DNA of 64,000 bases, taken from the IMG/VR virus record IMGVR_UViG_3300038825_001787. One strand, 5' to 3'. The position numbers and the translations under genes are program-made. Below the pieces are notes generated by a model. That model was not told the DNA's origin. It ran no database searches and saw nothing but the letters and a program-made list of their open reading frames with translations. The DNA is from an uncultured virus (IMG/VR IMGVR_UViG_3300038825_001787). Its lineage: Duplodnaviria > Heunggongvirae > Uroviricota > Caudoviricetes. Positions 10,723-48,538 of the stretch are shown one piece after another. Within the stretch, counting starts at the first letter, position 1; every line of letters begins with the position of its first letter.

Positions 10723-10728
10723 TATGGA

Positions 10729-10812: not shown

Positions 10813-11678
10813 TGGCTAAAAAAAACTACGGGCCTTACATGGCAGGTGGATTATTACTTGGTGGCCTATATCTTTTAACAAAAAATAATAACTCACTTGG
10901 ACCAACTAATGCAGCAAGACAGTCTGTAGCACAAGACCCATCTTACGCAGGGGTTACACCAGGTTTATTCCATTACATTTCAGAATCAACAGAATGGAAT
11001 GATTACCAAATTGTCCAAACAGCACTATCTCCAGATGTGCCAACAATAATAATTCCCTACACATACAATTCAACAGTTACACACTTGATGGCTCGCGGTA
11101 TGCCACAGAACGTATCAGAAAGCGAAGCAACCAAAATAAGAAACCAAGGATACCCTAGTGTAGTAAATAGATTAGAGAACCTATATAATAGTAGGAATAT
11201 GACTGTAGGAGATAGAAGAGAAATATATGCACATCTATTACCTATCTATAATGTAATGCAAATACCTAACGAACAACGTGTGCCACTACCAGGAGCGACT
11301 GTTTCGACAACCACACCAACAGCAGAGTCAGTGCAAGGCATGGCAATACGCCAAAACATTGCAGGTCATTACGACCCAGGAGTTGGAATAAATGGTAGAC
11401 AATCGACTAACCTTGCAGGTAACAGAAGAACTCGTACAATAAGTGGCATGAAAGCGTGGAGTAAAAATGCAGCAAAACAAATTTACGACCAACGGCAACT
11501 ATCTGCAACAAGGGAAATGACATTAAGAAATATGAAAAGTGGTATGGACATTAACCTCTACGAACCAGTAGACACTTTAGACATCATGTCAGAAACACCT
11601 AAACCAACTATGAATCAGGTAGAAAACGTAGGAAGCGCATTCGTTAAAACGAGAGGCGCTATGCGAAGGCTACTGTGA
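10812..11678 (+). CDS. Putative virion membrane protein with N-terminal TM anchor
   Basis: Start reassigned to ATG 10812 (MAKKNYGPYMAGGLLLGGLYLL) because of the TAATG coupling. Confidence 0.75.
   Translation: MAKKNYGPYMAGGLLLGGLYLLTKNNNSLGPTNAARQSVAQDPSYAGVTPGLFHYISESTEWNDYQIVQTALSPDVPTIIIPYTYNSTVTHLMARGMPQNVSESEATKIRNQGYPSVVNRLENLYNSRNMTVGDRREIYAHLLPIYNVMQIPNEQRVPLPGATVSTTTPTAESVQGMAIRQNIAGHYDPGVGINGRQSTNLAGNRRTRTISGMKAWSKNAAKQIYDQRQLSATREMTLRNMKSGMDINLYEPVDTLDIMSETPKPTMNQVENVGSAFVKTRGAMRRLL
11151..11270. other. TpA-rich island inside CDS
   Basis: taccctagtgtagtaaatagattagagaacctatataatagtagg...ctattacctatctataatg. Confidence 0.6.
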
Positions 11679-26801: not shown

Positions 26802-27412
26802 TGATAATCCCATTTTACACAAGTAGTGGTCAGGCAGGAAAACGCGATGCGGAGGGTATCTTATTCGGAGTTGGCGAGTTCTTTCCGTTCTGGGGTTATG
26901 GCCCTGATTGGTTTAATAAAACTAATTACACTTGGAAGGGCCATCCCGAAGAAACAGCCATAGCAAACGATGACCGATCCAAATACTATGGTTCCACTAA
27001 ACTCCGAAGAATAGCAAATGAGTTAGATGCTTTGCTTCCAGATTTCAAGACAATGGTAAACCAGATGGAGAATCAGATACCTAGTGAAAATATCAACTTC
27101 CTGACGAGAAGTAACTTGATTAACAAATTAGCAAGCAGGGAGTTCGGAGCCAAAGACGAAGAGTTCAATCAGGGGTTAATTGCTAACGGCATAGTTCCCA
27201 CTGATCACGCAGGAAGCAAAGGTGGAAAAGTTGATGAGAATATTAGAAAGGCAAAGAAGATCATCGGTGTTGATGGGCCAATAACTTACAAGTTGGTTCC
27301 TTTCCAAAACGGACATAACTTTGCGTATCAGCCTGTTACCGATACAAACAGCGGCAGATTTTTTGTTCTAGTCGATATCAACCCTGCGAGTGAGAGGGAG
27401 GAACTAAAATGA
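26801..27412 (+). CDS. Hypothetical protein
   Basis: 203 aa; GGAGGTGA SD; TAATG and ATGA overlaps on both sides. Confidence 0.8.
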   Translation: MIIPFYTSSGQAGKRDAEGILFGVGEFFPFWGYGPDWFNKTNYTWKGHPEETAIANDDRSKYYGSTKLRRIANELDALLPDFKTMVNQMENQIPSENINFLTRSNLINKLASREFGAKDEEFNQGLIANGIVPTDHAGSKGGKVDENIRKAKKIIGVDGPITYKLVPFQNGHNFAYQPVTDTNSGRFFVLVDINPASEREELK

Positions 27413-30400: not shown

Positions 30401-31560
30401 TATTACATACAGTAAACTCCACATACTCTCCCAAAGAAAAGGTAAATGATGCAAAAGTTCCAGGCTTTGTGTTTGACGTAGTTGTAGTTGAAAAGATAAA
30501 AACCAATCCCGCGTTCTTTGGTGTCCCTAAGAAACTAAATTCATGGATGGATGTTTATGTGGACTCACAACCATTGGGTCTCGATGATGACGGCAATCAA
30601 AAATATAAAGACGTAATAGTACAAGGAACATTAGTTAGAATGCCAGTGTATGGTGGTAGAAAAGCAGACGTTCCTTTGTTGAGTAAAGGTTGGGAGTCTG
30701 AGAGCGTTGAAAAGCGTATACCGGGAGAATTTGACAAAGCAGCAAGAAGACACTTGCGTGGAGAGTCCGGATACTCAGTTTGGCTTGACGAAAAAAGTGC
30801 AAACAGTATTAGCAAAGTAACACCACATTATACACAAACTAGTTTACCACTTTCTTATTCGACTGCAGTTGACGACGCATTTGGTTATGGTAAAGATGGT
30901 AACAGAGTCTTATTTGGTAAAGAACCGAACAAAATAACTCAAATAACTGATAGGTACAACACCAAGTCGTATAAGACACAAGTAGATTTACACGACATGA
31001 CTAACAAAGAACAGGCAGAAGAAGATGCCAAAGTACTTATGAAAATGTTCAATTATGTGCCAGGTGGGAAAATATTAGACCCAAATAAAAAAGAAGTAGA
31101 AGTGAGACCTGGTAGTGGACTTAGTTTAGAATATCAAGAAGCATTCGAGGCAGACAACGAACGCTTGCGTAAAGCACTAAAACCAACAGAGTTTGCACAC
31201 TTTGGTGCAAGAATTAATCCACCAATTAAACAACAAGCATGGTCTGCATACGTCGATAAATATGTAAAGACCCACGCTAAATGGGAGTCTGAACCAGAAC
31301 CTAAAGAAAGTTGGGAAAGATACAGTGTAGGAGAATTTCCAATCCACTTTGTAGATATGTTAGAAAAGGAAAGATTATTGTTGAAAGCCCAGTCCGAACA
31401 TTCGTTAACAGAAGATGAGTTGCGAATAGTCAACGAAACTTTTAGTGCTGAACCAACAAGCGACTTATTAGAAAGTCCACTTGATGACTTATTTGAAACG
31501 GAAGAAGAGGAGGAGGCAGTCGAATATGAACCAAGTGACGAAGACTACGACGTCGAGTGA
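27409..31560 (+). CDS. LigD-like fusion: AEP primase-polymerase + degenerate ATP-dependent ligase core + ligase OB domain, followed by NP-delimited unknown domains
   Basis: AEP: MAVIDID, MYTGKNFQIW, IWFD, FFSLH, AVPVSIDEI; ligase-like YAKARGID, TLVGQL; OB: MVVLG, IGNVYVGV, YVLGKA, TEPSIVVEVAYED. Confidence 0.7.
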   Translation: MSDNALLFREFDKFAQLETVDKETLTEDDITFFLDNFLSPNVFFWHKGQSILCANAEDRETGQKPFDMSGKSFTEAVNELKPLLTKKIKDSYGSVSQEANAFGYDPAPKTVKQLAEALAYDAGMNTEKWKGMSEIERLQHPVTTNAQVRANAIKSRLAQYHERVLPFMLRKTMHHPISFIRYSQTRGHIPTPLRDTKDVMEVTLRSEDDLQEILSSKRYKDTDFPGALDEEIRGMVWDPAPTRKNLKMAVIDIDNPAKLKKEKLRDVTYKAATRIVDAGHPYIIMYTGKNFQIWMGANAEQPLGDAPDVIDYLRGLLNGLGNFEGKNQAIAANEIWFDEGVLANRMEPTRMFFSLHYPLRDLQKTYSGLAAVPVSIDEIKTFDPLMHAHPETVLLNFDTYASVISAFYDAVKIGQDYGMDTETDPECIRLEEKYPDHQSISLIDNSSNSIGVKLEDISSKVADEESAFVYAKARGIDAVITYNERGGIRFGGNTLSATKISGTGVSKIESRENTLSTLITRTGIVIHQDYITRDLQRFCQSKKISEITLVGQLVSTDYVGAQLEEKEIRGVIARKGEILPEEFKRLRFVANKIVSYNNDEVPLEVMSKELGKINTGRISPSPNAYYTQPIGTKVKKLYQQIRNQRTGRELVVLGEEKYIITSRQTMNMVVLGMDPKTTSYQQNSREIGNVYVGVIKTDRNRGPIYYVLGKAEIALKKEDRIKLKQLVVGENNENIVPINLRNDDFVKDIVLTEPSIVVEVAYEDIGKRMTEGLPSHFLPGTQAGRPSIYRIVPVKRYVTKMLGARIIGIKEDLNPLRETDVSYKQDNLIKIQGTAPKGGFSIVQSLPNPIKRHNLHFPYDRYLGEEIDTKVPWKMSEKAFDKLSRLTKNKSLIGYVDGKRIYYDEADYWVMHGSNEDFFWASMTFRSIQSPFKLRGIDIMTSAKMCAEYGINWHLVIAEGTFYWLYCNIENDEIRKKHAKYIKDEDHKGNIEEILSDLLHTVNSTYSPKEKVNDAKVPGFVFDVVVVEKIKTNPAFFGVPKKLNSWMDVYVDSQPLGLDDDGNQKYKDVIVQGTLVRMPVYGGRKADVPLLSKGWESESVEKRIPGEFDKAARRHLRGESGYSVWLDEKSANSISKVTPHYTQTSLPLSYSTAVDDAFGYGKDGNRVLFGKEPNKITQITDRYNTKSYKTQVDLHDMTNKEQAEEDAKVLMKMFNYVPGGKILDPNKKEVEVRPGSGLSLEYQEAFEADNERLRKALKPTEFAHFGARINPPIKQQAWSAYVDKYVKTHAKWESEPEPKESWERYSVGEFPIHFVDMLEKERLLLKAQSEHSLTEDELRIVNETFSAEPTSDLLESPLDDLFETEEEEEAVEYEPSDEDYDVE
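28685..28800. other. TpA-rich island inside CDS
   Basis: tctaatagataatagtagtaatagtataggtgttaagttagaagatatatctagtaaagtagc. Confidence 0.6.
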
Positions 31561-34500
31561 TGTTGCTTCTATTCTGAGTTTTCCAGAAAGGGGAGAAATA
31601 CTTTCTGGGAACAAAATTTTGGACACAGAAACCAAGTACCAAAATGGTGTATTCAAATATAGAATCAACTTTACAAGAGATGTAAGAAGAAGTGATGTAC
31701 CAAATATTTTAAGAGCGTTTTTCAATAACGGAATGGTATCAATAAATGGAGTAGACCACATAGTAGAGAACCATGATTACCAAACAAGAACTACTAGAAA
31801 GAACACAGTGGTTATTGGCTCTATGCAAATTACCCCGTTAAGTATGGCTAATCCTGTGCAAAAGAAACTAACTGCTTTGCAAGACTTTGACAATGAATAC
31901 GAAAAGATGGTGTTGACATCACCAGAAACTTATTTCCGAGCATTTTCATACAGAGGTTTTGACGGTCCAGCATTTAGGTCAAAGTTGTTTTCTTTTGTAT
32001 CTAACATGGGTGAAAACTACGGCTATTGTGACGATAAAACAATTTACCATCGTAGAGCATCGTTAGTGATGCCCAAAATTAAAATCACAAAGGCACCAGA
32101 AAATGCAAAGATGTTTTATCACACTCACCCAAAAAGAGACGAACCCTCACTTAGTTCTGCTGACGACTATCTTATTTATTTTGATATGAGTCACAAACCA
32201 AGAAACATTAGGCACTTCTACACAGTTATGGCAGACAGAATGGATTACTTTCACATAGTCCCAAAGCATTCTAAGAAGAAAGATTATGTCAAGATAAATG
32301 AAGACAAATTTTTGGAAGAAGTAGACAATCAAATTGACGAAGCAGGTAAAAGATTAGATGAAGTAATGTCCAATGAGACCTACCAGGACGACTTGGTATA
32401 TTGTGAAAAAGTAACTAGAGAAGTAGTCAAGTGGCTAAATAAAAAGTACGAAAAATATTTTACAATAACTTACAAATGCCATTACAAGGTAAAAAAGAAT
32501 CCAGAAGAACCGAGCAGCGATGACTTGCACTTGGGTGATGAGTTCATCGGTAAAGCACTAAACGATTTGAAAACAGGTGAAGCATCGTGGCCTGAATTCA
32601 AACCAAAAGATAGACCACAAGAAAAATATGCGTATTGGCACTCAAAATACTTTGCGATGAATAAAGATGCAAAAGGACTTGGATACATGGGTTTGATGCC
32701 AGGAGACGATAGAAGGTTTGCTCATTTCCTACATTCCCCCTATAGAGGTAGTAACTATACTTACGATGATATACTAAGTATACTATGTATAAGTAATGAT
32801 ATAAAGATTAGAGATGCTAAGATAAGAGATGGTAAAGAGATTGCCAGTAGAATAGAGGATATCTTAGATTACCTAGAGATAGATAACGAAGAGATCAGAG
32901 GAGATATTATTCTCTATGATGCAGTAGTAGCAGTAGATGCTTATGGTGACTTAGCGCAAGGAATTGGTGAAGAACATAATTTTATTTTACCCATAGCAGA
33001 TTTTTCAATAAAAAGTGTAGAAGCAATGAATGACGTTGATAGCGGTAAGAAAGATTTGGAACGGGCAAAACACGACATAATGTTCGTTCTAAAAGAAAAG
33101 ATGGCCAAGACCGTTACAAAGGCATTGGGAAAAAAGAATAAGCAATTAGAAGTTATGCGAGAGCCGGTGCCAGTCTATGGACAAGACGGACCAGCAGTAT
33201 CCAAAGTAGGAATCAATCCTCCCGTTCAAAGAAGCAAGAGAGAGTACCAGATGACGCTACCGTCTAAGATATTTGACAATCCGGAACTGTTATCCGAAAT
33301 CTTAGAGCCTTTCAAAAAAAATGAACAATTAAGAAACGCTAAAAATGCTTACACGGTTATCATACCAGTAGATAATTCTGCAACCACCTTTGTCATACAA
33401 AGTACAGGAACGGTGCAAGTAATCAGTCCGTCAAAAGGATACCCAAGAGCAGACGACCCAGATGAGGCAACATTGCAAGCAGTAAGAAAATTGGTTGACA
33501 AGTTAAACGAGTTTGGTTTTGAAATGAACACAGATGACATAGCATTTGGTACAACAGAACCGATGCGTAACCCGCGTTCTGGAGTTATCATCGCAGTAAC
33601 TGGACCAATCCGTTCAACTAAAAACAAGTTTATAGATTCATTGTCAAAGAGAATCAATGCCAATGTAGTTACAACATTTACTACAAAGACTTTGAAAGAG
33701 TACGAAAAAAGGTCAGACATCGTAGAAGTCACGGATGAAATATTTGACAGAATGGAAATCAACGGAGAATTAGTCGTAGTAACAAAGTCTTACGATGGCC
33801 ATAGAAGAGGGTTTAGCAAGAAAGACATGAAAGAAAAAGACTTCATGTTAGTTAATGCAAGAATAAAAGATTTACATTTTTTAATCAGCGCAAGTCCGTC
33901 TGTAATCAGTTTCTACCTGCACCCGACTAACACAGAGGCTGTAATAGAATCGTATCTTTCGGATAGCGTATCACCACAAGAAGCAAGACGTGTCGCAGGT
34001 ATGATTGACGACACGTTAGACGCAGCAGAAGGTGAAGTAGAGCATATCATTGAATATGATATTGAAAGACCTGCTGCCGCGATTGAAGAAGTTTACAATA
34101 CAATCCCAAAACCAAATCCAATGCCCAAACCAATTGGTTCTATAATGGGTTCTTCACATGGAAACTATTATCTGCGAGTTAGAAACAATCCTTCACACAA
34201 TAGTTGTCCAGCAGTAACGCAGAACTTGGAGATGAACACTAAGAATAGAAACTCTGCAATAAAAGCAGATTACATAAAATATGGCCCACTTAATTTAGCA
34301 GATGAAGATTACTGGGTTAAAGCAGCAGAACACTGGAACACAACACCAGAAGTTGCTAAGGAATCAAAGTGTGGTAACTGTGTTGCATTTGACATATCAC
34401 CAAGAATGTTAGATTGTATGCCAGGATCTGTACAAGATGACGGGCAATTAGGAATGTGTTGGATGCACAATTTCAAGTGCCATTCTGCTAGGACTTGTTA

Positions 34501-37500
34501 CACTTGGGCAGCAGGTGGGCCAATAACAGAGGATTCTGTTTCTTACGATTGGCAAGAAAGGTCAGCAAAATCCAACCCTCAAAAAAAAATTTCAATTAGA
34601 ATAGATGAAAGCACAAACCCAGAAAAGAAGTTGATGGCTGTATTTACCAAACCAAATGGTAGAACAAAGACTGTCCACTTCGGTGCTAGAGGAATGAGTG
34701 ATTATACTCAACACAAAGATAAAGACCGAATGAAGAACTACCTTGCACGTCACGGTGGAATGGGAGAAGATTGGAATGACCCAATGACAGCAGGTGCGTT
34801 GTCAAGATGGATTCTATGGGGCAAACCAAGTCTCAGAGAATCGTTTAACGACTTCAAGAAGAGATTCAACTTGGAAGGAGTCATGGCTGTGACTAACACA
34901 AAGATGAATCCAAGAATTCCAAAGAAGTATGAAGGGCAAGACCCAAGCGAGCATTCTGACCTTTACACAGACGAAGACCCAGAAGGAACAATCCAAGGCT
35001 TGGGGTTTAAAGACAAAACAACAGCAAAGAAATCAATTCAATTGATTAAGAAGTCAGGAAAAACCCACGCACATAAGATACAAGCAGCAATGGCTATGGA
35101 ACAAAGAGCAAGATTCCATCCACACGCAACAAAGGGAATCAAAGAGGCTCAGAAGATATATGCAGAGTTCATCGAAGAAATGAAAGAGAAGACAAAGAGC
35201 AATCCAGCATTTATCGTAGGGCAAGGAGGCAATACATTCGATGTAAGAGTAGTAGCGCCCACCCGTGACCCTATTATGATTGAGTCATTGAGAGCAGCAA
35301 CCGATAAGTCGTTCAAACATCACAAGTGGTATGTTAAGCACCATCTTGATTACGTCATGGCAATCATGAAAAGAATGCCAAAAGTAATGGGCAATTGGGA
35401 TAAACAAATGGTTGATATGGTTTGGATGCACGACTATCCGAAAATGATGGGCAAGGGCCAAGATTTGTCAGTTGTTAACGATTTACTAACAACTCATCGG
35501 GGAGAAGACTATGCACATCAAGTCGTTCATCAACTTCACTTAATGGAGAGACTCAAGAAGTCTGATTGGAACCCGCTCACAGAATATTCTATGGTAGCCG
35601 CCAATCTTTCTACCGCAGACGCCTTATCACATTACTATGGCCCATTCTTCCAAATATACATTGACGAGAACCCTGATATGTCGATGGAAGAAATAAAGAA
35701 AAGCAATCGCCAAAAGTTAGCGAAAGACAAACTCAAACTACGAGCAGGGCCAATGAAAGATGGATTGGATTCAATTAGGTTCCAATACAAAGGACGTAAA
35801 GTCAAGATAGTTGGTAATGAACACATCAAGGCATTAATTGAAAAGAAGAACCCAAGCAAAACTCCCGAAGGCAGAAAAATTCCAAAGAAGTATCTCAAGG
35901 GATTAAACAAGGAAGAGATGGCGATAGCCGCTAAGGAAATCGACAAGGGATACAAGTATGACATAGACGATCCAAAAGCATACGAGTATTGGAAGTCAGA
36001 TATTCAAGCAACCGCAAGAGGATACAAGACCGTACCAAGTAAGTACAAAAAGAAGTTTATACAAATGTACGGCCCACTTCCCGAAGAAGGAAAGTTCCTA
36101 GATAAGATGGCAAAGGCCACCAAGATAAAGAAGTCAATTCTGGAAAAGGTCTACGACAAGGGACTAGCAGCATGGAGAGGTGGACACAGACCTGGCGTTC
36201 AACAACATCAATGGGCTGCAGGTAGAGTTTATTCTTTCGTCACACTTGGTAACACGGTGAAGAAAGGAAACAAGAAGATGCCAGATTACTCTTTGGCAAT
36301 AGAGGCTGGAATAATTAAAGACAACCCACCATCATTTATTGCCGCTAGAGACCCTAAAAAATGGGCAAAGAGATATGATAGAATAATTAAAATGAGTGGT
36401 AAAGAACTCATGGAAGAGGCTAACGAACAAGCAGCAGAAAGGGGATTAACGATTCAATTAACCATAACCGAACCAAATATGAAAGAAATGATGAAAGGGC
36501 GTAAGAACTTCCCACTACAACCAAAGTACGAAAAACTGTATAAAGCGTATCTTGCATCCAACAAGACCGCCATGATTTCGATTGCCAAAGGAGGAACAAT
36601 TATTGAGAGTCTTGAGTTTACATTAGTCGAAGAATCAGCAAAGGAATTAATAGATTACCTTGAGTCTCGTCAAAGGTGGCCTAAGAAAAAAGCAGTTTTG
36701 CCGCTCATAGGAAAGATTGTTGTTGAAGACGGGCACGCATTTTTTGAAACAGATATTTTCCCTAAATTAGAAAGTTTACAGAGAAAAAGCAGATTCCCAA
36801 TAGCAATTGGTGGTTTGGGTGGGTATGAAATGTCAGAAGGACAACAAGGAAAGGGATACTATGGAATCATTAAGATGTATCAAGCAGGTTTCTTAGAAGA
36901 CAATGGGATTGAAGCATTTGGCTCAGGCGAAAGCCCAATGCGCTCAGACTTGTACCAGTCATACGGCTGGCTTACACCGTACTCGTACAAAGAAAACTAT
37001 CCCTATCCATCAACTGCAGCAGAGTATTATTTGAATCTGAATAAGAAAGACAAGTTACCAAACAAATCCGCCTATTACGACAGTATCTACCGGCCAGTTT
37101 ACTCAGGAACAAAATCAAATCCAAATCCATATTACAATGCACACCTTTATGCAAGTGGTAGCACAGACCCATTTTTCCCAGGAGACGTACCTGTAGCCCC
37201 ACCAGCATTGTTAAAGAATCCACCAAGTAAAGTAATCATCGTAAGTGGCCCATCTGGTTCTGGAAAATCAACCATATCCAAAGCAATAGCAAAAGAACTT
37301 GGCGGCACTCTTGTACCAACTGTTACAACAAGACCCAGAAGGCCAAAAGAGAAAGAAGGAGAAGATAGAATCTTCGTTTCTAAAGATGAATTCAAAGAAA
37401 TGATAAACAACAACGAGTTTGTTGAATACAAGCAACACAAAGATGGAGTCTTTTACGGCAGAAGGAAAGTAGATATGGACGACATATCAATTGTAGAAGT

Positions 37501-37837
37501 TAGCCTAAAAGGAATGAAAGAATATAAAAAACTTTATCCAGATTCGTTTGCAGTGTTCTTAGAACCAGACAAGTCTCCGAGAGAGATAGAACAAAGATTA
37601 TTGTCAAGAGGCGGAATGTCGGAAGCAAACGCAAAAGCCAGAGCAAGCATAATTCCTAAGCAAGTTGCAGCAGCGAAAACAATGCCATATGATTTATTCA
37701 CTAAATCAAGAACAGGTAAGTATTCAGAAGTAGCAAAAGAAATCATCAGTCAAATACCAATGGCTAATCCAGGTTGGCGACACGGAGAAGCGATGGATGA
37801 AGAAGACGACCCATTTGCAGATCAGTTTGAAGCATAG
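31526..37837 (+). CDS. Giant polyvalent/polyprotein: JAB-like, two guanylate-kinase-like, Cys-rich, DUF5754-like, HD-like, DUF5824-like and GNAT-like domains
   Basis: About 2100 aa; start moved to ATG 31526 after GAGGAGG; FYHTHP..SLSSADD; SGPSGSGKST..TTRPRRPKEKEGED; CGNC/CWMH/CHSARTC; VHFGARGMSDYTQH; H..MHD..AD; GLAAWRGGHRPG; QGKGY. Confidence 0.85.
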   Translation: MNQVTKTTTSSDVASILSFPERGEILSGNKILDTETKYQNGVFKYRINFTRDVRRSDVPNILRAFFNNGMVSINGVDHIVENHDYQTRTTRKNTVVIGSMQITPLSMANPVQKKLTALQDFDNEYEKMVLTSPETYFRAFSYRGFDGPAFRSKLFSFVSNMGENYGYCDDKTIYHRRASLVMPKIKITKAPENAKMFYHTHPKRDEPSLSSADDYLIYFDMSHKPRNIRHFYTVMADRMDYFHIVPKHSKKKDYVKINEDKFLEEVDNQIDEAGKRLDEVMSNETYQDDLVYCEKVTREVVKWLNKKYEKYFTITYKCHYKVKKNPEEPSSDDLHLGDEFIGKALNDLKTGEASWPEFKPKDRPQEKYAYWHSKYFAMNKDAKGLGYMGLMPGDDRRFAHFLHSPYRGSNYTYDDILSILCISNDIKIRDAKIRDGKEIASRIEDILDYLEIDNEEIRGDIILYDAVVAVDAYGDLAQGIGEEHNFILPIADFSIKSVEAMNDVDSGKKDLERAKHDIMFVLKEKMAKTVTKALGKKNKQLEVMREPVPVYGQDGPAVSKVGINPPVQRSKREYQMTLPSKIFDNPELLSEILEPFKKNEQLRNAKNAYTVIIPVDNSATTFVIQSTGTVQVISPSKGYPRADDPDEATLQAVRKLVDKLNEFGFEMNTDDIAFGTTEPMRNPRSGVIIAVTGPIRSTKNKFIDSLSKRINANVVTTFTTKTLKEYEKRSDIVEVTDEIFDRMEINGELVVVTKSYDGHRRGFSKKDMKEKDFMLVNARIKDLHFLISASPSVISFYLHPTNTEAVIESYLSDSVSPQEARRVAGMIDDTLDAAEGEVEHIIEYDIERPAAAIEEVYNTIPKPNPMPKPIGSIMGSSHGNYYLRVRNNPSHNSCPAVTQNLEMNTKNRNSAIKADYIKYGPLNLADEDYWVKAAEHWNTTPEVAKESKCGNCVAFDISPRMLDCMPGSVQDDGQLGMCWMHNFKCHSARTCYTWAAGGPITEDSVSYDWQERSAKSNPQKKISIRIDESTNPEKKLMAVFTKPNGRTKTVHFGARGMSDYTQHKDKDRMKNYLARHGGMGEDWNDPMTAGALSRWILWGKPSLRESFNDFKKRFNLEGVMAVTNTKMNPRIPKKYEGQDPSEHSDLYTDEDPEGTIQGLGFKDKTTAKKSIQLIKKSGKTHAHKIQAAMAMEQRARFHPHATKGIKEAQKIYAEFIEEMKEKTKSNPAFIVGQGGNTFDVRVVAPTRDPIMIESLRAATDKSFKHHKWYVKHHLDYVMAIMKRMPKVMGNWDKQMVDMVWMHDYPKMMGKGQDLSVVNDLLTTHRGEDYAHQVVHQLHLMERLKKSDWNPLTEYSMVAANLSTADALSHYYGPFFQIYIDENPDMSMEEIKKSNRQKLAKDKLKLRAGPMKDGLDSIRFQYKGRKVKIVGNEHIKALIEKKNPSKTPEGRKIPKKYLKGLNKEEMAIAAKEIDKGYKYDIDDPKAYEYWKSDIQATARGYKTVPSKYKKKFIQMYGPLPEEGKFLDKMAKATKIKKSILEKVYDKGLAAWRGGHRPGVQQHQWAAGRVYSFVTLGNTVKKGNKKMPDYSLAIEAGIIKDNPPSFIAARDPKKWAKRYDRIIKMSGKELMEEANEQAAERGLTIQLTITEPNMKEMMKGRKNFPLQPKYEKLYKAYLASNKTAMISIAKGGTIIESLEFTLVEESAKELIDYLESRQRWPKKKAVLPLIGKIVVEDGHAFFETDIFPKLESLQRKSRFPIAIGGLGGYEMSEGQQGKGYYGIIKMYQAGFLEDNGIEAFGSGESPMRSDLYQSYGWLTPYSYKENYPYPSTAAEYYLNLNKKDKLPNKSAYYDSIYRPVYSGTKSNPNPYYNAHLYASGSTDPFFPGDVPVAPPALLKNPPSKVIIVSGPSGSGKSTISKAIAKELGGTLVPTVTTRPRRPKEKEGEDRIFVSKDEFKEMINNNEFVEYKQHKDGVFYGRRKVDMDDISIVEVSLKGMKEYKKLYPDSFAVFLEPDKSPREIEQRLLSRGGMSEANAKARASIIPKQVAAAKTMPYDLFTKSRTGKYSEVAKEIISQIPMANPGWRHGEAMDEEDDPFADQFEA
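32740..32940. other. TpA-rich island inside CDS
   Basis: ctatagaggtagtaactatacttacgatgatatactaagtatactatgtataagt...cttagattacctagagatagata. Confidence 0.7.
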
Positions 37838-38010: not shown

Positions 38011-38715
38011 ATGCGTCTGACAGGAAGGTTCATTGAATCATTCAAACACAGGCATGGTGTTGTACTAGGTATTACTAGAAGTGGTAAGACTTTCTTGGCC
38101 GCAAAGGTCTTACAACGAATACAAGAAACAGGTGGTCACACATTGTTTATTGACCCGAAGCATGATGACGGATATTCCCATCTTGGTACAATTTGTCATT
38201 CACCAATAGAAGTTTACGAGCAACTTTTATTGAAGAATCCAGCAATTATTTTTAGAACACCCGGAACATCAGAAGAAAGAATAGAAGCATTAGATAGAGT
38301 AGTAGAGTTAATGTTTACATTACAAAGGACAGCAGGATTCAAAAGAATCCGACGTGTTATTGCAATTGACGAAATACAGTTATTCGTTAAGAAAGGTAAC
38401 TCTCGTGCAGTAGAAATGATTTGGACAATTGGAGCAGGTATTGGAATCGTAGGTATGGCATTGACACAAAGAATCCAATTGCTTAACGAAACTGCATGGT
38501 CACAATCAGACAATAAAGTAATTTTCAGAATAGAAGATAGACCAGAGTATCTTAGAAGTAGAAACTTGGAACACTATGTTGAGCAATTAGATTTCTTTAC
38601 CGACCCAATGAATAAATATTGGTTTTACTATACACAAGGCGGAGGAAAGTGGAAGAAGCATGAACCAGTTCCGTTGGTTGACAAGACCAAATCACTAAAT
38701 CTAAGTCGTTTTTAA
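38011..38715 (+). CDS. A32/FtsK-HerA-superfamily genome packaging ATPase
   Basis: Walker A GITRSGKT, LFIDPK, Walker B IAIDEIQ, ALTQR, SQSD; 234 aa, as in tailless icosahedral viruses. Confidence 0.82.
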   Translation: MRLTGRFIESFKHRHGVVLGITRSGKTFLAAKVLQRIQETGGHTLFIDPKHDDGYSHLGTICHSPIEVYEQLLLKNPAIIFRTPGTSEERIEALDRVVELMFTLQRTAGFKRIRRVIAIDEIQLFVKKGNSRAVEMIWTIGAGIGIVGMALTQRIQLLNETAWSQSDNKVIFRIEDRPEYLRSRNLEHYVEQLDFFTDPMNKYWFYYTQGGGKWKKHEPVPLVDKTKSLNLSRF

Positions 38716-38755: not shown

Positions 38756-39292
38756 ATGGCCATCACTATTAGCACACCCCACTTCAAAGAATCAGTAGAT
38801 GACCCTAATATCAAAACATTTCTTACCCAACTAGAATCTTTTTTAGACGCAAAGAATATGCCCTACTATAGTGTAAGAGGTCAGTCTTTGAAAACAATGT
38901 TGGATTTATCCACATCTGAAGCAAGAGGTACTACTTACAATAACGAACTCGCAGCAGCACTAACTGTTAGTGATATACACATTGAATTAAGAGCGTATGA
39001 TTTCGATACACATGAAGATTGGTCTGACTCCGATTTTGTTTTTGGTAAATTAATAGGATATACTGATGAAGAGTTATTGAAGAACTTCGAAGATACTATT
39101 GGTTCTAGAGCATCATATGAAACAAACATAATAACACCGATTGGTCATTATTCTAGCGCATTGAGTGAGTTTGTTTATCAAATACCTAGTATAGTAATAT
39201 ATGTTAATGTAGATAGTAGTAATCTATACCCTACTATAACAGAAAGTATAACAGATATTATTTTGGATTACGAGGAGCGTAGAACTTCATAG
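38756..39292 (+). CDS. Hypothetical acidic protein
   Basis: 178-aa ORF with alpha/beta pattern; no confident family. Confidence 0.7.
   Translation: MAITISTPHFKESVDDPNIKTFLTQLESFLDAKNMPYYSVRGQSLKTMLDLSTSEARGTTYNNELAAALTVSDIHIELRAYDFDTHEDWSDSDFVFGKLIGYTDEELLKNFEDTIGSRASYETNIITPIGHYSSALSEFVYQIPSIVIYVNVDSSNLYPTITESITDIILDYEERRTS
39180..39260. other. TpA-rich island inside CDS
   Basis: tacctagtatagtaatatatgttaatgtagatagtagtaatctataccctactataac. Confidence 0.65.
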
Positions 39293-39467
39293 GTTCGTTC
39301 TTGATAGTCCATCGCAAGAAATCTACAGCAGCGTTGATAGCGTGTGACCTATCTTTGAATATTTTTTGGTCAATCATATCGTCAACCATATCGTAGAGTT
39401 CTTTGTTCATCGTGAATGAAACAGGAACTTTACGACTGAAATCTCTTTCAGTCTGGCGTCGAGACAC
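39258..39467 (-). CDS. Ribbon-helix-helix (CopG-like) transcription regulator
   Basis: VPVSFTMNKELYDMVDDMI...FKDRSHAINAAV. Confidence 0.85.
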   Translation of the reverse strand: MSRRQTERDFSRKVPVSFTMNKELYDMVDDMIDQKIFKDRSHAINAAVDFLRWTIKNEPMKFYAPRNPK

Positions 39468-39540
39468 ATGTTTCCCAACCTACACATACTTATCACAGTT
39501 TTTGAAGCGGTTATAATACCACATCGTAATCTATAGATAT

Positions 39541-40674
39541 ATGACACGAGCATATACCAATACACGTCCCTTATATCCTACCCCACTGTCGGGTAGTTTA
39601 GATCGCATGCCACTAGCCGAAGTAGTAATACTCAATCCGCGAAGACCTGCAGCAAAGCGCAAGTCTTCAAAGAGGAAGAAAAGTGTGCGTTCGAAAAACA
39701 AAGGAATGAATAAAATGGCAAGAAGAAAATCTGCAAAAAGAGTAAAGTCAACCAGAAGGAAGACTACTACTCGTCGACGCGCTTCTCCGAAGCGTAAAGC
39801 AACAACTCGCCGCCGAAAAGTAACCCGTAGGAAGGCTGCTCCAAAGAGAAGAAAGACTACACGTAGAAAGACTGCACGTCGAAAGACTGCTCGCAGAAAG
39901 ACTACACGTAGGAAGGCTGCTCCAAAGAGAAGGAAGACTACACGTAGAAAAAAGACTACAAGAAGGAAGGCTGCTCCAAAGAGACGCCGAACTACACGTA
40001 GAAAAAAGACTACAAGAAGGAAGTCATCTCCAAAGAGAAAGACTACTAGAAGGCGTAGAGTTAAGAGACGTGCTGCACCTAAGAGAAGAAAATCAACTCG
40101 AAGGAAAACTGCACGTAGGAAGACTGCAAGAAGAAAGAGCACAACTCGTGTTCGTCGAAGCCGTTCATCAAAGAAGATGAGTTTCAAGGGATACACATCA
40201 TTCGTAAAGGACCACATGGACCTACGCGGATTAGGTGTAGTAGTTCTTGGTCTATCTCTACCTTCAATGGCAGGTTACCTCGCATCAACTACTGTTGGTA
40301 TGAGAGCAATGTCCTACGTGGATATGGTACCTGGTATGACAACAAACGTCGGAAAAGCAGCACTTGCTGTTGGTCTGACTGCTGCTGTATCATACGGAAT
40401 GATGGGCTTAGGTGTCATTAACGCTAAGGAAGCATTGTCAGCAAACATGATCGCTCTAGGTCTTGTAACTGTTGGTGCATTGCAAACTATGAATCTACCA
40501 TACGGTAACAGCATGGTTTCATCTCTACCAAGTGCTGGCGGTCTCGCTGGTCTAGGTAGTGCTTCCTACGGATACATTGGGAACTACCACGATACAGGTA
40601 TGGGTGTAGGAGCAGAAATGCTTCCAGCACCACAGTCCCAACAGTTATTCGGCGTTAGGGCTAACATATTCTAA
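39541..40674 (+). CDS. Putative core protein: protamine/histone-H1-like basic region + multi-TM domain
   Basis: About 180 aa of R/K/T/A repeats (TTRRKAAPKRRK), then 3 hydrophobic segments and LAGLG; start may be 39607. Confidence 0.85.
   Translation: MTRAYTNTRPLYPTPLSGSLDRMPLAEVVILNPRRPAAKRKSSKRKKSVRSKNKGMNKMARRKSAKRVKSTRRKTTTRRRASPKRKATTRRRKVTRRKAAPKRRKTTRRKTARRKTARRKTTRRKAAPKRRKTTRRKKTTRRKAAPKRRRTTRRKKTTRRKSSPKRKTTRRRRVKRRAAPKRRKSTRRKTARRKTARRKSTTRVRRSRSSKKMSFKGYTSFVKDHMDLRGLGVVVLGLSLPSMAGYLASTTVGMRAMSYVDMVPGMTTNVGKAALAVGLTAAVSYGMMGLGVINAKEALSANMIALGLVTVGALQTMNLPYGNSMVSSLPSAGGLAGLGSASYGYIGNYHDTGMGVGAEMLPAPQSQQLFGVRANIF
39826..40140 (+). repeat. Degenerate in-frame repeats encoding the basic tract
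   Basis: Repeated AGGAAGGCTGCTCCAAAGAGA and ACTACACGTAGAAAAAAGACTACAAGAAGGAAG blocks. Confidence 0.85.
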
Positions 40675-40712
40675 TTACGTAAAAAATAATTAAGAGTCTT
40701 TACGAAAGCATC

Positions 40713-40737
40713 CTGGGGGGTCATCGCGACCTCCCAG
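40713..40737. terminator. GC-rich hairpin between convergent genes
   Basis: CTGGGGGGTC-atcgc-GACCTCCCAG, 10-bp stem with one G-U pair; no adjacent U tract. Confidence 0.55.
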
Positions 40738-40755
40738 CGATGTACTAATATAAAA

Positions 40756-40986
40756 TTAAAAAGTCCCTCTCTCATCGAGAGTCTTCATAGTTATGTTTCT
40801 TCTAACATATTCATCTTCTGTAATCTTCTTTTCAACCAAGTCACCTGCTAATCGCATCAGTGCGCACGAACGAATATATGCAGACACTGTTATCTTGGTT
40901 CGGTTTGCTTCTCGTAGTATTTCTTGGTACTCTGCTTGAGTGAACCTTAGTGTAACCACTTTTGATGTACTAGTCTTATTGCCCAC
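40756..40986 (-). CDS. Ribbon-helix-helix (MobC-like) DNA-binding protein
   Basis: KVVTLRFTQAEYQEILREANRTKITVSAYIRSCAL. Confidence 0.85.
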   Translation of the reverse strand: MGNKTSTSKVVTLRFTQAEYQEILREANRTKITVSAYIRSCALMRLAGDLVEKKITEDEYVRRNITMKTLDERGTF

Positions 40987-41163: not shown

Positions 41164-41778
41164 ATGGAACTAAGACCTTACTATGACCGACCTACTGGTC
41201 AAATTAAGAATTATCTAAGCCTTATTGAGCAAAAAATTGCAAGCAACTTTCCACACTGGGGTCGAGGATCTCAGGGTGTCTGGCCGAAAGGCGACTACGG
41301 TAAGGGAATCCTACGTGCTGATCAATTCAGTATATTAGGAACTTACGGGCAATGGTTAATCCCATCATCCGGTTCATCCGGAAACCCGTCCTCTGCATCT
41401 GTAGACTCCTTTGGTTGGTCATCTAAGACCTTGAACTTTAAGTCACTAGAAGAATTTTTCTACTTGACTATGGGTATTCAATATCCGGTTACGCCGCTTT
41501 TGATAACAGAACATCAATGGCAAATTTCCGGGATCGAAACACCCGTGATCGATCAGCAAATCTTCGAAGTACTTGAGGAACCTTTCGTGTGGTATGAATC
41601 ACCTATTGTTATTGAACCTGAGAAGAACATCGTCTGCAACCACCGTGTGGTTGGAGGGGCTGCTAATTTCGGTAACTCTACAATAAGTGGCGCAGAAAAG
41701 TGGCGTGTAATTGGATCTGTTGTGGGACAACACCACGAATTGATCCAACTCACACAGAACATCGGAGAATTGAGTTAA
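41164..41778 (+). CDS. Candidate single-jelly-roll major capsid protein, small (sphaerolipovirus VP7-like)
   Basis: 204 aa, beta-rich; YLTMGI...ITEHQWQISG...WYESPIVIEP...WRVIGSVVG resembles the small SJR MCP pattern from memory; close to the packaging ATPase. Confidence 0.55.
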   Translation: MELRPYYDRPTGQIKNYLSLIEQKIASNFPHWGRGSQGVWPKGDYGKGILRADQFSILGTYGQWLIPSSGSSGNPSSASVDSFGWSSKTLNFKSLEEFFYLTMGIQYPVTPLLITEHQWQISGIETPVIDQQIFEVLEEPFVWYESPIVIEPEKNIVCNHRVVGGAANFGNSTISGAEKWRVIGSVVGQHHELIQLTQNIGELS

Positions 41779-45608: not shown

Positions 45609-46013
45609 ATGAAACTAGGAAAGAAAGTTATGAAATTCGCAGACGATTACCCACTAGCAGTGCTAGCATTAGGTACGGTTGGAATAATGTATGCTTTCGA
45701 GAATGTCGGACAGATGAACGGTCTAGGTCAAGCAAAATTCAAGACTGGTGGCAGCAACATGGATGATTTGTTTAGAAAAACCGGACACACAGGAAGCGCA
45801 GCACCAGGAACAGGAAGATGGGATACAGTAATGCCTTCTCCATCTGGACCACAAGTGCGCTACGATGCAGACTATCACACTCAACCACTTATGATGGATC
45901 CACAACTAGAAAAGATGTTACAGGAAAGAGGCAAGAGACCTCTTGTGCAAAGCGCATCTATTAGACACGGGTATGAACCAGTCATCTTTGCAGGATTAAG
46001 ACAAACACTGTGA
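45609..46013 (+). CDS. Small virion membrane protein, N-terminal TM
   Basis: KFADDYPLAVLALG..., MNGLG motif. Confidence 0.75.
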   Translation: MKLGKKVMKFADDYPLAVLALGTVGIMYAFENVGQMNGLGQAKFKTGGSNMDDLFRKTGHTGSAAPGTGRWDTVMPSPSGPQVRYDADYHTQPLMMDPQLEKMLQERGKRPLVQSASIRHGYEPVIFAGLRQTL

Positions 46014-46023
46014 GGATAAAGAT

Positions 46024-46401
46024 ATGAATTGGGAATCAGCAAAAAAGCAACTAAAAGCGGCTGGACCATTTGCTGTAACAGGCGCATTTGTTGGTAGTAC
46101 TGGCTTTATCTTAGTAGAGTACTTAGATGGTAGCGACATGTCATTGTCTTCTTTATTATTAGGTGCTGGCGTAGGTGCATTAGTTGGTGGCGGTATGGGT
46201 ATGTTAGTTAACGCTGCAAGGGACCAAAGAATTGAAAATTATACGGTTGTAGCACCTGTTATAGCAACAGGACTTACAATGGGTGCACTCAAAGCATACC
46301 CACGCACACGCGGTATGTCAAACAAATCACTTATATCCGCTGGCCTAGTCGGTGGTACAGTCGGTTTGACACTAGGTGGAAGTATCGATTATTTAACATG
46401 A
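46024..46401 (+). CDS. Gly-zipper multi-TM membrane protein
   Basis: Four GxxxG-rich hydrophobic segments. Confidence 0.8.
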   Translation: MNWESAKKQLKAAGPFAVTGAFVGSTGFILVEYLDGSDMSLSSLLLGAGVGALVGGGMGMLVNAARDQRIENYTVVAPVIATGLTMGALKAYPRTRGMSNKSLISAGLVGGTVGLTLGGSIDYLT

Positions 46402-46410
46402 GGAATTACA

Positions 46411-46677
46411 ATGAAGTTAACAAAAAAAGTAAAAGGTTTCTATAAAAGAAATACCGCATTATCTATAGGCATTATGGGCGCTGCGGCGTACATGTATATG
46501 AAAAGAAATGGAATGACAACAAGCCTTGCACCAGCACCTGTCAAATCAGCGACAAGTAGCGCACCGGTAGCAAGATATGCGTATGACGCATACCCTCCAG
46601 TGAGAAATGAGCCGTACACAAATTCGTCTCACTTCTTCGGACCTGCAGACGGAGACCCCGTCTTCTACGGATTCTGA
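46411..46677 (+). CDS. Small membrane protein, N-terminal TM
   Basis: 88 aa; GAGGA SD; ends HFFG...VFYGF. Confidence 0.75.
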   Translation: MKLTKKVKGFYKRNTALSIGIMGAAAYMYMKRNGMTTSLAPAPVKSATSSAPVARYAYDAYPPVRNEPYTNSSHFFGPADGDPVFYGF

Positions 46678-46687
46678 GGTGTTTTGA

Positions 46688-47029
46688 ATGTCAGGATGGT
46701 ACGGCTCTATGGATATGGGTGGCTTAGGTCATCCACATATGAGTGATGGAGATTTCTTTAGAAGCCATAATATGAGTCAAGAACAGGCAGCAGGAATGAC
46801 TGATGCTCAATTACACCCACCGTCAACAGTGGTAACAACTAGTTCTAGTGGGTCATCTATGCGCAGTGTTGCTAAAAAAGCCGGATATGGTTTAGTAGCA
46901 GGTGCCGTTGTTGGAATGGTATTGTTAAAAGTCCCAGCATATAGTAAGATGATGAGCAAGGGCAAGTCATGGCAAGCAGCAGCAATTGGTGCAGCAGTGG
47001 CCGTTCCTTTAGCAACAATGTACGCGTGA
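46688..47029 (+). CDS. Small membrane protein, 2 C-terminal TM
   Basis: MGGLG motif, Ser/Thr linker, GAGGTG SD. Confidence 0.75.
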   Translation: MSGWYGSMDMGGLGHPHMSDGDFFRSHNMSQEQAAGMTDAQLHPPSTVVTTSSSGSSMRSVAKKAGYGLVAGAVVGMVLLKVPAYSKMMSKGKSWQAAAIGAAVAVPLATMYA

Positions 47030-47040
47030 GGTGAAAAAAT

Positions 47041-47277
47041 ATGTATCCAGATCATTTAGGAGAAGTTACCGCACCAAAAGTGGCGGCTAGTACTTTAATA
47101 ATCGGTGGCGCAGTAGTTGCATTCGCTGTAGGCGGTGTAATGCAAGCATTTGCTGACGGTTATTTCTTAGGTCGAGCACAAAAGAAAGGTGTTACTTACA
47201 AAACTATAGCAAAGAGAAATGCTGCACTCGGTGGAGCAATAGGTGCGATAGCAGCAGCAGGAATTCTATCGGCGTGA
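47041..47277 (+). CDS. Small membrane protein, 2 TM
   Basis: 78 aa; GAGGTGA SD; begins MYPDHLG. Confidence 0.75.
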   Translation: MYPDHLGEVTAPKVAASTLIIGGAVVAFAVGGVMQAFADGYFLGRAQKKGVTYKTIAKRNAALGGAIGAIAAAGILSA

Positions 47278-47283
47278 TTACAC

Positions 47284-47451
47284 ATGGGAATACAGAAGGA
47301 TGTTAAAACGGCTTGGAAAGATTCTAAGAAGTTTGCAAACAAGCATCCACTTGTATCTTTAGTAGTCGGTGGTGCAGCAGCATACACTGCATTAAATATT
47401 TATTTCACTAGTTATGTAATGACTAAAGCATTTGAAAAGGGGAATCAATAA
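47284..47451 (+). CDS. 55-aa single-TM protein (not in ORF track)
   Basis: MGIQKDVKTAWKDSKKFANKHPLVSLVVGGAAAYTALNIYFTSYVMTKAFEKGNQ; TAATG overlap with next gene. Confidence 0.7.
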   Translation: MGIQKDVKTAWKDSKKFANKHPLVSLVVGGAAAYTALNIYFTSYVMTKAFEKGNQ

Positions 47452-48104
47452 TGGCTAGAAAGAAAGGTGTAATTAAGCAAATCAGCAATTACGGTGAGAA
47501 ACACCCGTACGTTACTCTAGCACTTGCCGGAACTTTTGGTTATTATTTATATGATATGATTAAGGTACAACCAGTAGCCCCACTTACCGAAAGACAAAAA
47601 GTGCGACAGGAAGTTTTGGCAAATGATGGCTATGTTGATCACATACAGCGAGAGCGAATGAAAATGGCTGGACTAGGTGCAACAACTTCAACTTCAACCA
47701 CATCATCATCTTCACACAGGATGCCGGGACCAGGCGATGGCGAGACGTCCATGTATATCGATCCTACAAAATCAGGAATGTTTGGAATAGGTGCTGCAAG
47801 GAACCCTCCAGCGCATTTGATGTTTGATAAATCACAAGGACTTGGAGCCTGTCATAAATGTGGAACAAGAAGCAACCCTCACTGTCATTGTGGTGGTTCC
47901 CATGGAATGAACGGCTTTTCACCTTCTGCTCGTAGAAGAGTAGGTCATGCTGGAATCGGTATGGCAACTGAATCTTACGAAGCAACACTTGATACTCAGT
48001 TTTCCAACCAGGAAGCAATGATCGCTGGAGATCTAAAGAAACACCAAGACATTCTCGGCTTCTCAGGGCTAGCACCCTTAGCAGGCGGAGACTGGTACGA
48101 ATGA
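47451..48104 (+). CDS. Membrane protein with multiple Gly-motif sites and a small Cys/His cluster
   Basis: N-terminal TM; MAGLG, MFGIG, SQGLG, HAGIG; CHKC...HCHC. Confidence 0.8.
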   Translation: MARKKGVIKQISNYGEKHPYVTLALAGTFGYYLYDMIKVQPVAPLTERQKVRQEVLANDGYVDHIQRERMKMAGLGATTSTSTTSSSSHRMPGPGDGETSMYIDPTKSGMFGIGAARNPPAHLMFDKSQGLGACHKCGTRSNPHCHCGGSHGMNGFSPSARRRVGHAGIGMATESYEATLDTQFSNQEAMIAGDLKKHQDILGFSGLAPLAGGDWYE

Positions 48105-48538
48105 TGCATAAGCACGCTCGTAAAGTCCCACGATATCATCCTGATTTAGAATGGGAAAGACGTACGTTAAGTAATGATTTTATTGACATCAATCGCATGG
48201 CTTTGGATGATAGTTTTAGTGGAAAGAATGCAGCACCACTAAGTAAGCGTAGAAATGGTGTAGGATTCACAGATAATAAGACACCAGGATTGTTTGGCTT
48301 AGGTGCAGCCGACAAGCCTAATATGAATTTTACAGACCCTAAAATGACTTTCTTGCTAGGAAGTTTGGTTGCAGTAGGGGCTTATACTACAGTTGATTGG
48401 ATTTTGCATAAACCTAATTTATCTAGACTTGATAGAATGTTAGGAAGAACGCCAGCCTCCCTTCTAGTGGGAGGCATAGCATTCGTATTATTTTCAACGA
48501 GTACTAGGGATCTTATAGACGGTGCTCAGTACCAATAG
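48101..48538 (+). CDS. Membrane protein, 2 C-terminal TM
   Basis: TPGLFGLG precedes the TM part. Confidence 0.75.
   Translation: MMHKHARKVPRYHPDLEWERRTLSNDFIDINRMALDDSFSGKNAAPLSKRRNGVGFTDNKTPGLFGLGAADKPNMNFTDPKMTFLLGSLVAVGAYTTVDWILHKPNLSRLDRMLGRTPASLLVGGIAFVLFSTSTRDLIDGAQYQ

Follow-up and report, generated by a model that had tools for sequence, protein, structure and literature searches.

A 64,000-nucleotide stretch of DNA from an uncultured virus placed in Caudoviricetes (IMG/VR record IMGVR_UViG_3300038825_001787), referred to here as the window, carries a gene whose product joins a long arginine- and lysine-rich repeat tract to a hydrophobic domain. This target gene lies within an open reading frame (ORF) of 377 residues at 39541-40674 on the + strand. 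The original prediction equated the gene with that whole frame; the frame is there, but its start was misplaced. The gene in fact begins at the ATG at 39607, which gives a coding sequence at 39607-40674 (+) of 355 residues plus stop, supported by a conserved start methionine and by an excess of third-position differences. We place the start at 39607 because the motif MPL[AS]EVV[IV][LM]NP is found in 62/62 related loci with the 5′ end inside the contig, because 26 of those 62 have a stop codon 2-9 codons upstream of the conserved methionine, and because a TTATAT box sits at -35, -36 or -37 from this ATG in 62/62 loci with at least 45 nucleotides of upstream sequence. In the window, this archaeal-type TATA box occupies 39571-39576 (+), 36 nucleotides upstream of the start codon, and the ATG at 39541 lies upstream of it. 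The protein opens with MPLAEVVILNP (39607-39639, +), continues into a polybasic tract of about 180 residues (39640-40179, +) and ends in a glycine-rich hydrophobic domain. In the 377-residue numbering, the motifs that had drawn attention to the protein are where they were said to be, with ILNP at residue 30, LAGLG at 335, YGYIG at 343 and LFGV at 369.

Relatives of the target were recovered by several routes. A word-based protein search returned 10, a pattern scan of metagenome contigs returned 77 loci whose C-terminal domains are 40-96% identical to that of the window, IMG/VR contributed one close and five distant records, and a profile search of 1.84 billion representatives yielded 29 clusters at E <= 0.001. 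In fifteen of the 77 loci the contig stops short of the 5′ end of the gene, leaving 62 with a 5′ end, and 55 loci together with the window protein make up the 56 complete homologs on which most counts below are based (total length 327-398 residues). The order of basic tract followed by hydrophobic domain holds in 56/56 complete homologs and in 3/3 complete distant ones. We found no family for the target in Pfam (E <= 0.01), PHROG, NCBIfam or PADLOC, no relative among PDB sequences beyond one chance-level row at E = 0.13, and no match by tblastn in 50,697 records of phages and archaeal viruses. These searches indicate that the target is a new protein family, outside the families of known viral DNA-condensing proteins. 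A sequence relationship with adenovirus pVII and mu, H1 or protamines finds no backing in Pfam, PHROG or NCBIfam. Two apparent departures from the shared architecture were rejected. 'Stand-alone' C-terminal forms of 165-175 residues, considered as a separate gene, are probably truncated gene calls, with contigs breaking in the repeats; one of them, P0019, is 97% identical to the distant locus L080, which has the full ORF. Locus L052 is an assembly chimera in which the frame passes from ...SYGYIGNYSAG into ABC-transporter ATPase-like sequence, and it was left out of the counts.

The basic tract is extreme in composition. Residues 35-213 (377-residue numbering) consist of 33.5% arginine, 22.9% lysine, 15.6% threonine and 10.1% alanine, with no acidic residue and a net charge of +101; the tract of the window protein holds 103 lysines and arginines and no aspartate or glutamate. 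Built of RRK pentads, it contains 18 RRK triplets and six [AS]PKR[RK] motifs, which we take to resemble the SPKK type, and its DNA is organised in tandem repeats of 15, 54 and 81 nucleotides. We could thus confirm the stretch of about 180 R/K-rich residues described as directly following ILNP. Across the 56 complete homologs, the tract spans 156-234 residues with 85-127 lysines and arginines and 0-2 acidic residues; repeat number varies among relatives, in line with the original prediction, and always in frame. Its conservation in frame extends to 56/56 complete homologs and 3/3 complete distant ones, so that the loss of frame named as a refutation of that prediction is not seen. Differences within the tract fall at codon positions 1, 2 and 3 in the numbers 58,407, 46,661 and 115,523 (all-pairs counts over 56 sequences, in which pairs are not independent), and synonymous pairs make up 54% of the codon pairs that differ, compared with 41% in the C-terminal domain. 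Given this third-position excess, the basic tract is translated in the sense frame and is under purifying selection. An antisense ORF at 39531-40217 was considered and set aside: composition alone keeps it open, and it is the third codon position of the sense frame that takes the differences. In four RNA libraries (four studies), contigs cover the target and its downstream neighbours p204 and p280, with DNA carry-over possible; they show presence in RNA libraries and cannot rank expression level. The ATPase and p178 part of the stretch had no cover in these four runs, from which we conclude nothing, and the 14 DNA runs containing the stretch are all possible sources of it and lend no independent support. 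Within the tract, these contigs carry indels in multiples of 3 nucleotides and repeat-length variants.

The N-terminal peptide is the most constant part of the protein. Its 11 residues, ILNP included, form an invariant 11-mer, and the 14-residue N-terminus is almost invariant: the 56 complete homologs have just 3 versions of it as peptide but 25 as nucleotide sequence, with 78% of differing codon pairs synonymous by the same all-pairs counts over 56 non-independent sequences. The peptide is also kept in 3/3 complete distant loci (L080, L082 and L083), as the variant MPLQEVVILNP, even though their C-terminal domains are only ~35-45% identical to that of the window; L080 carries a full ORF with MPLQEVVILNPRRP followed by the basic tract. 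The pattern E-V-V-x-x-N-P occurs only twice in the six frames of the window, at the target N-terminus (39619) and in the downstream protein p541 (44269), where the copy is an invariant LEVV[LV]DNPY at residues ~97-104. A looser search for [VILM][VILM]NP within about 20 residues of a methionine found one other + strand place, internal to a 481-residue HAD/PNK-like ORF. The idea of 'NP' as a recurring processing site therefore finds no support, since ILNP is part of the invariant 11-mer and does not recur.

The last 164 residues are rich in glycine, alanine, leucine, valine and methionine, and this C-terminal part measures 147-169 residues across the 56 complete homologs. Kyte-Doolittle averaging over 19-residue windows (KD19) locates three hydrophobic segments, all on the + strand. 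Segment 1, the LGVVVLGLSLPSMAGYLA region at 40228-40287, reaches a KD19 maximum of 1.63, is conserved in position and contains an invariant GLxLP; segment 2 (40357-40419), likewise conserved in position, reaches 1.75; segment 3 (EALSANMIALGLVTVGAL, 40432-40491) is marginal, with a maximum of 1.44. Three segments at conserved positions are seen in 46/56 near homologs (the 10 others show four) and in 16/18 distant ones. Of the two flanks of the hydrophobic domain, only the N-terminal one carries a strong positive charge. The segments are followed by a C-terminal tail (40492-40671, +) with SYGYIGNYH and a terminal QLFGVRANIF. YGYIG is present in 56/56 homologs and was also a scan pattern; the invariance of EAL[TS]ANMI (segment 3) and SYGYIG across the 77 loci is in part built in, because both were scan patterns. 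The C-terminal [LM]FGV[RK]AN[IV]F is found in 46/56 homologs, and in 18/18 distant representatives an [LM][FY]G motif is followed by a terminal N[VI]F. Distant members keep GF..FVKKH, GLALP, the three hydrophobic stretches and the [LM][FY]G...N[VI]F end, with GGYLGYLG replacing SYGYIGNYH. A complex prediction with three copies of the C-terminal domain scored 0.00 and was run without controls, so it carries no weight either way.

The conserved TATA box and a 3′ stem-loop bracket the target gene. Two tandem TATA-like boxes had been described upstream and both exist, but only the one at 39571 is conserved (62/62); the other, TTATAATA at 39511-39518, is kept in the closest relatives only and may serve the small divergent gene upstream. 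A bacterial promoter reading was rejected, the 6 sigma-70-like sites not exceeding chance (3.9 +/- 2.3 expected). About 35 nucleotides upstream of the TATA box, between the divergent gene and the target, lies a perfect palindrome, ATCTATAGAT (39529-39538), which was read directly, is kept in clade-1 loci and is a possible operator. Downstream, the hairpin that had been noticed proved to be real and conserved. The stem-loop (40708-40743, +), between the convergent target and NikA-like genes, folds at -28.6 kcal/mol (z = -6.2, with 0/200 shuffles as stable). Five of its 12 pairs show compensatory changes on both sides, 87.4% of cells are paired compared with 76.4% in shuffles, and covariation reaches 0.372 against 0.178, with 0/500 shuffles as high and all slid controls lower. 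It has no Rfam match.

The target sits within a block whose gene order is the same in 24/24 loci of at least 8 kilobases (kb), as far as each contig reaches, and in the IMG/VR loci L080-L083. The order runs from the end of a 2,118-residue gene through a 234-residue ATPase, p178, a small minus-strand gene, the target, a NikA-like minus-strand gene, p204, p280, p329 and p541 to eight small proteins. The ATPase (38011-38715, +) is an FtsK/HerA-like P-loop protein and a candidate packaging ATPase. It matches AAA_22 at 29.1 bits (cut-off 27) and phrog_2666, annotated as large terminase, at 1.8e-13; a DUF87/HerA match of 18.2 bits is below cut-off. Profile searches of PDB gave weak HerA matches over residues 8-42 (the Walker A region) and 118-191 at E values of 0.005-0.02, and there are also weak HerA matches in PADLOC and weak similarity to TraD. 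The 2,118-residue ORF (31481-37837), which ends just before the ATPase gene, contains DUF5754, DUF5824 and a C-terminal guanylate-kinase domain.

Flanking the target on the opposite strand are two small genes of ribbon-helix-helix (RHH) type. The upstream, divergent one (39258-39467, -) encodes 69 residues and is conserved in 57 loci at 51-100% identity; it has no Pfam match, and its RHH label was assigned by eye. The downstream one (40756-40986, -) is convergent with the target and NikA-like (PF21983, 2.3e-9, 37.7 bits). It follows the target in 15/24 loci, and the divergent clade has another small minus-strand gene in its place. Beyond it, p204 (41164-41778, +) is ultra-conserved, with 95-100% identity in 47 loci; in the same comparison, the ATPase falls to 69% and the C-terminal domain of the target to ~42%. 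Such conservation is unusual for a viral protein. The wider p204 family comprises 48 proteins with identities down to 41%, on contigs of up to 143 kb, and GQHHELIQ near the C-terminus is nearly invariant. PDB profile searches of p204, p329 and p541 gave 0 matches, and the ESM Atlas returned only unnamed viral clusters without structures for p204 and p329. The eight small proteins (134, 125, 88, 113, 78, 55, 217 and 145 residues; 45609-48538, +) close the block, and six of them are hydrophobic, with KD19 maxima of 1.49-2.06. Some clades add a gene for a 2-oxoglutarate-Fe(II) oxygenase (PF13640, 9.5e-12) that is absent from the window. It lies immediately after the target or else separates the p280 homolog from the p329 homolog (L055 at 10614-11156, L056, L057, L062, L066, L068 and L070; L080 at 5105-5638 and L081-L084). 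This enzyme may hydroxylate virion proteins rich in proline, lysine or arginine; a parallel is the chlorovirus prolyl hydroxylase acting on PAPK repeats.

We found no HK97-type capsid, portal or terminase nuclease family among the 51 window ORFs searched with Pfam or the 24 of them searched with PHROGs. With its ATPase and small membrane proteins, the block would fit a structural role of the target near a membrane, and it is similar to the morphogenetic blocks found in membrane-containing viruses with packaging ATPases of FtsK/HerA type.

The rest of the window points to a large virus with a probably archaeal host. It encodes ribonucleotide reductase, RusA, a HAD/PNK-like protein, a group II chaperonin and a tail-spike-like protein that matches phrog_4636 at 7.8e-21 among virion structural PHROGs, and it has no tRNA gene. 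The chaperonin, a thermosome subunit (59260-60813), reaches 502 bits with the NF041082 model, above its equivalog cut-off. The archaeal assignment follows from the TATA box together with a genome scan in which 8/8 confirmed cellular thermosome relatives were archaeal, at 39-41% identity. A relative in IMG/VR, a 61.5-kb record, has a completeness rating of 44%, and related metagenome contigs reach 139-143 kb, from which we estimate a genome of about 140 kb. No DNA polymerase B was found in the 61.5-kb record. Marine archaeal viruses that encode thermosomes have been described, among them a 'group D' with thermosome, resolvase, DNA polymerase and RNA polymerase A and, in the portions of these reports that we draw on, no recognised structural genes (PMC5434244, PMC10160649, PMC11706807).

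From its sequence and setting, we read the target as a structural, membrane-anchored DNA-condensing protein of this uncultured marine archaeal virus of ~140 kb, a reading to which we assign an even chance. The tract, disordered and with ~100 positive charges over ~180 residues, would bind viral double-stranded DNA (dsDNA) and neutralise its charge in the manner of protamines, H1 tails and adenovirus protein VII. The C-terminal domain, as two or three Gly/Ala-rich hydrophobic helices, would anchor the protein in a viral lipid layer, and the genome would as a consequence be condensed on one face of the membrane. If there are three spans, the conserved tail (GY..GYIG...LFG...NVF) would lie on the opposite face, where it could contact a protein shell. 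MPLAEVVILNP would serve to dock the protein on, or target it to, another component of the virion. By simple arithmetic, 140 kb of dsDNA would present ~280,000 phosphates, all of which would be neutralised by ~2,700 copies of the protein. DNA binding, membrane insertion, location in the virion and the role of the N-terminal peptide are thus properties that we infer.

Several points weigh against such a role. The three transmembrane-like segments of the original prediction are present at conserved positions, but they are only moderately hydrophobic: no KD19 window reaches 1.6 in 24/56 homologs, and maxima lie at 1.35-1.56 in many. The C-terminal domain could instead be interfacial or sit in a protein shell. 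Topology poses a further difficulty. A tract of +100 cannot cross a membrane and, by the positive-inside rule, stays on the cytoplasmic face; in PRD1-type assembly this face points to the capsid and not to the packaged DNA, the vesicle lumen being topologically outside the cytoplasm. Because the tract would stay cytoplasmic, the model needs a budded or wrapped envelope, or an open-sheet membrane of the kind described for Sulfolobus turreted icosahedral virus (STIV) and giant viruses. Nor did structure prediction help to define the block as structural. AlphaFold models of p329 (13 alignment rows; predicted local distance difference test score, pLDDT, 31) and p204 (24 rows; pLDDT 45, predicted template modelling score, pTM, 0.44) were unusable, and a Foldseek search with the low-confidence p204 model gave 0 matches at E <= 0.001 in PDB and BFVD. 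Finally, a plasmid-like nature has been raised for the possibly related, thermosome-bearing 'magrovirus group D' contigs, in which no structural genes were recognised according to the part of that study considered here (PMC10160649).

This last point feeds directly into an alternative that we judge unlikely, though it fares best of those considered: that the target is no virion part and instead handles the DNA of an element that is plasmid-like or moves in vesicles. Tethered in the host membrane beside an FtsK/HerA/TraD-like pump, it would keep replicating or transferring DNA there. Such an element would accommodate the ATPase with its weak TraD and HerA similarities, the mobilisation-type NikA-like gene adjoining the target and the failure of our window scans to find a recognisable capsid gene. 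It sits poorly with the tail-spike-like protein, with a large-virus repertoire of ribonucleotide reductase, RusA, PNK/HAD and thermosome, and with the standing of the relatives in IMG/VR as viral contigs. The ~100 charges per molecule are also far beyond what a tether needs, and bulk neutralisation fits them better.

A second alternative takes up the earlier proposal that the protein is bracketed by NP and GLG processing motifs. The target would be an adenovirus-like, tethered precursor that a viral maturation protease cuts at two places: just behind the N-terminal peptide (N↓P or LxE↓), and near the C-terminus at the glycine-rich LAGL↓G and LFG. A soluble protamine-like peptide would be released and stay with the DNA. 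We consider this improbable. The consensus for cutting by the adenovirus protease is (M/I/L)XGG↓X or (M/I/L)XGX↓G, as given in the relevant section of PMC4246237, and LAGLG in the window fits the second form. LAGLG is nonetheless kept in only 20/56 homologs and gives way to GLAGSS in the divergent clade; LRGLG and MMGLG of the target also vary, LFGV↓R has no glycine at P1′, and no adenain consensus site lies between the N-terminal peptide and the basic tract. We found no protease family among 51 window ORFs and 13 further ORFs in an extra 8.3 kb of the relative G001, a survey that covers about half of the ~140-kb genome. With LAGLG so unevenly kept, ILNP not recurring and no protease among the scanned ORFs, cleavage of the target at NP or GLG motifs is possible but unsupported. 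The original interpretation is thus supported in part: architecture, conservation and gene context bear it out, but the processing and the inner membrane are conjectural.

More suggestive of processing is the abundance of related motifs in the block. [MLIV]xG[LIV]G occurs 8 times in 14 module proteins, compared with 1.3 +/- 1.0 in residue shuffles (0/200 reach 8), and [LM]FG[VILA] 3 times compared with 0.3 (0/200); in the other 56 ORFs, the former is found 13 times against 4.8 expected (0/200 shuffles). These enrichments are overstated, because residue shuffling ignores local glycine and leucine richness. [MLIV]xG[LIV]G and [LM]FG recur in small hydrophobic proteins (45609-48538 and 26801-27412) whose homologs are only 35-40% identical, and they persist in divergent homologs of p134 ([MIV]xG[LI]G, 14/14), p145 (PGLFG, 10/10) and p217 (SG[ML]FG, 10/10). 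In addition, p134 ends in [IV]FAG[LIM]... and p88 in FYGF. The recurring motifs may mark cleavage sites or contacts that these proteins have in common, and contact sites would explain their conservation equally well. The end motif [LM][FY]G...N[VI]F, kept in all 18 distant representatives, also speaks for a precursor, and there is a precedent for a docking peptide in adenovirus protein VII, which fills a hexon binding pocket (10.1101/857581, in the part consulted). A fuller adenovirus-style scheme seems to us very doubtful: a lipid-anchored, docked precursor and at least four small neighbours would be cut at [MLIV]xG[LIV]↓G and [LM]FG by a putative protease, freeing a histone-like core. If true, adenain-style maturation with a dedicated DNA-condensing core protein would be seen for the first time in a prokaryotic virus.

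The modest hydrophobicity noted above invites a third alternative, a core protein without a membrane, whose Gly/Ala/Met-rich C-terminal domain packs on the inner capsid face or, by self-association, builds a nucleoprotein core. Protein contacts are what the strictly conserved C-terminal peptide and the Tyr/Gly-rich motif look like. However, three segments of ~20 residues with conserved spacing and helix-compatible patterns of small residues are harder to place in such a core, and the clearly hydrophobic small neighbours, with KD19 values up to 2.06, argue for lipid in the particle, so that we think this version quite unlikely. We also give little credence to a role in entry or DNA delivery, in which the polyarginine tract would escort the genome while the hydrophobic domain enters the host membrane like membrane-tube or ejection proteins: a nucleic-acid-binding polycation joined to a membrane-active domain and placed among small membrane proteins would suit it, but the length and charge of the tract suit stoichiometric packing, no fusogenic or lytic family matched in Pfam, PHROG or PADLOC, and such a role is compatible with membrane-anchored condensation and does not exclude it.

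The target marks a putative morphogenetic block in widespread large marine archaeal viruses (77 metagenome loci, contigs to ~142 kb). These viruses have no recognisable structural gene, the same gap as in the published 'magrovirus group D' contigs. If the block is structural, it would offer a first handle on how their particles are built, and it would extend FtsK/HerA-type packaging with lipid to archaeal virus genomes of ~140 kb.

Dedicated DNA-condensing virion proteins are known from eukaryotic viruses (adenovirus VII and mu, baculovirus P6.9) and from a few archaeal viruses. Protamines, the C-terminal tails of H1, baculovirus P6.9 and white spot syndrome virus (WSSV) VP15 resemble the target in their low-complexity arginine, lysine, serine, threonine, alanine and proline composition, in repeated motifs of the [AS]PKR[RK] kind and in the charge neutralisation expected of them. 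The target has no Linker_histone or protamine family match, and to our knowledge these proteins lack both a hydrophobic domain of several segments and an N-terminal peptide that is invariant. The logic of a basic nucleic-acid-binding domain followed by a membrane anchor is shared by the flavivirus anchored capsid protein C and the hepatitis C virus (HCV) core protein. These belong to eukaryotic RNA viruses, however, have a single anchor that is cut by known proteases, are much smaller and are unrelated in sequence.

Adenovirus pVII and pre-mu (pX) are arginine-rich DNA-condensing proteins of a dsDNA virus with short terminal peptides, and in this they are like the target; protein VII moreover contacts a capsid protein (10.1101/857581, same part). 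The target differs in lacking sequence similarity to them, in a tract that is several times longer and repetitive, in its C-terminal hydrophobic domain and in its probably archaeal host. A further difference is that no adenain-like protease was found in the scanned ORFs and that the candidate site of the target is present in 20/56 homologs.

Among archaeal viruses, a positional counterpart is VP12 of the alphasphaerolipoviruses SH1, PH1 and HHIV-2, a basic membrane protein encoded near an FtsK/HerA-type ATPase gene and the major inner-membrane protein. VP12 of SH1 and PH1 has 94 residues, an isoelectric point of 10.4 and two transmembrane segments, and its gene lies directly upstream of two capsid genes and near the ATPase gene, as set out in the portion of PMC3622292 used here. 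Unlike the target, VP12 has no polybasic repeat tract, and it serves a genome of ~30 kb as opposed to ~140 kb. Sulfolobus polyhedral virus 1 (SPV1) of the Portogloboviridae has a nucleoprotein core inside a lipid layer, with a 20-kb genome and no similar protein known. We found no description, in the literature consulted, of a DNA-condensing virion protein fused to a multi-segment hydrophobic anchor with an invariant terminal peptide. What would set the target apart from all of these systems is this fusion, in which a tract of the DNA-condensing type is joined to a hydrophobic anchor and headed by an invariant peptide.

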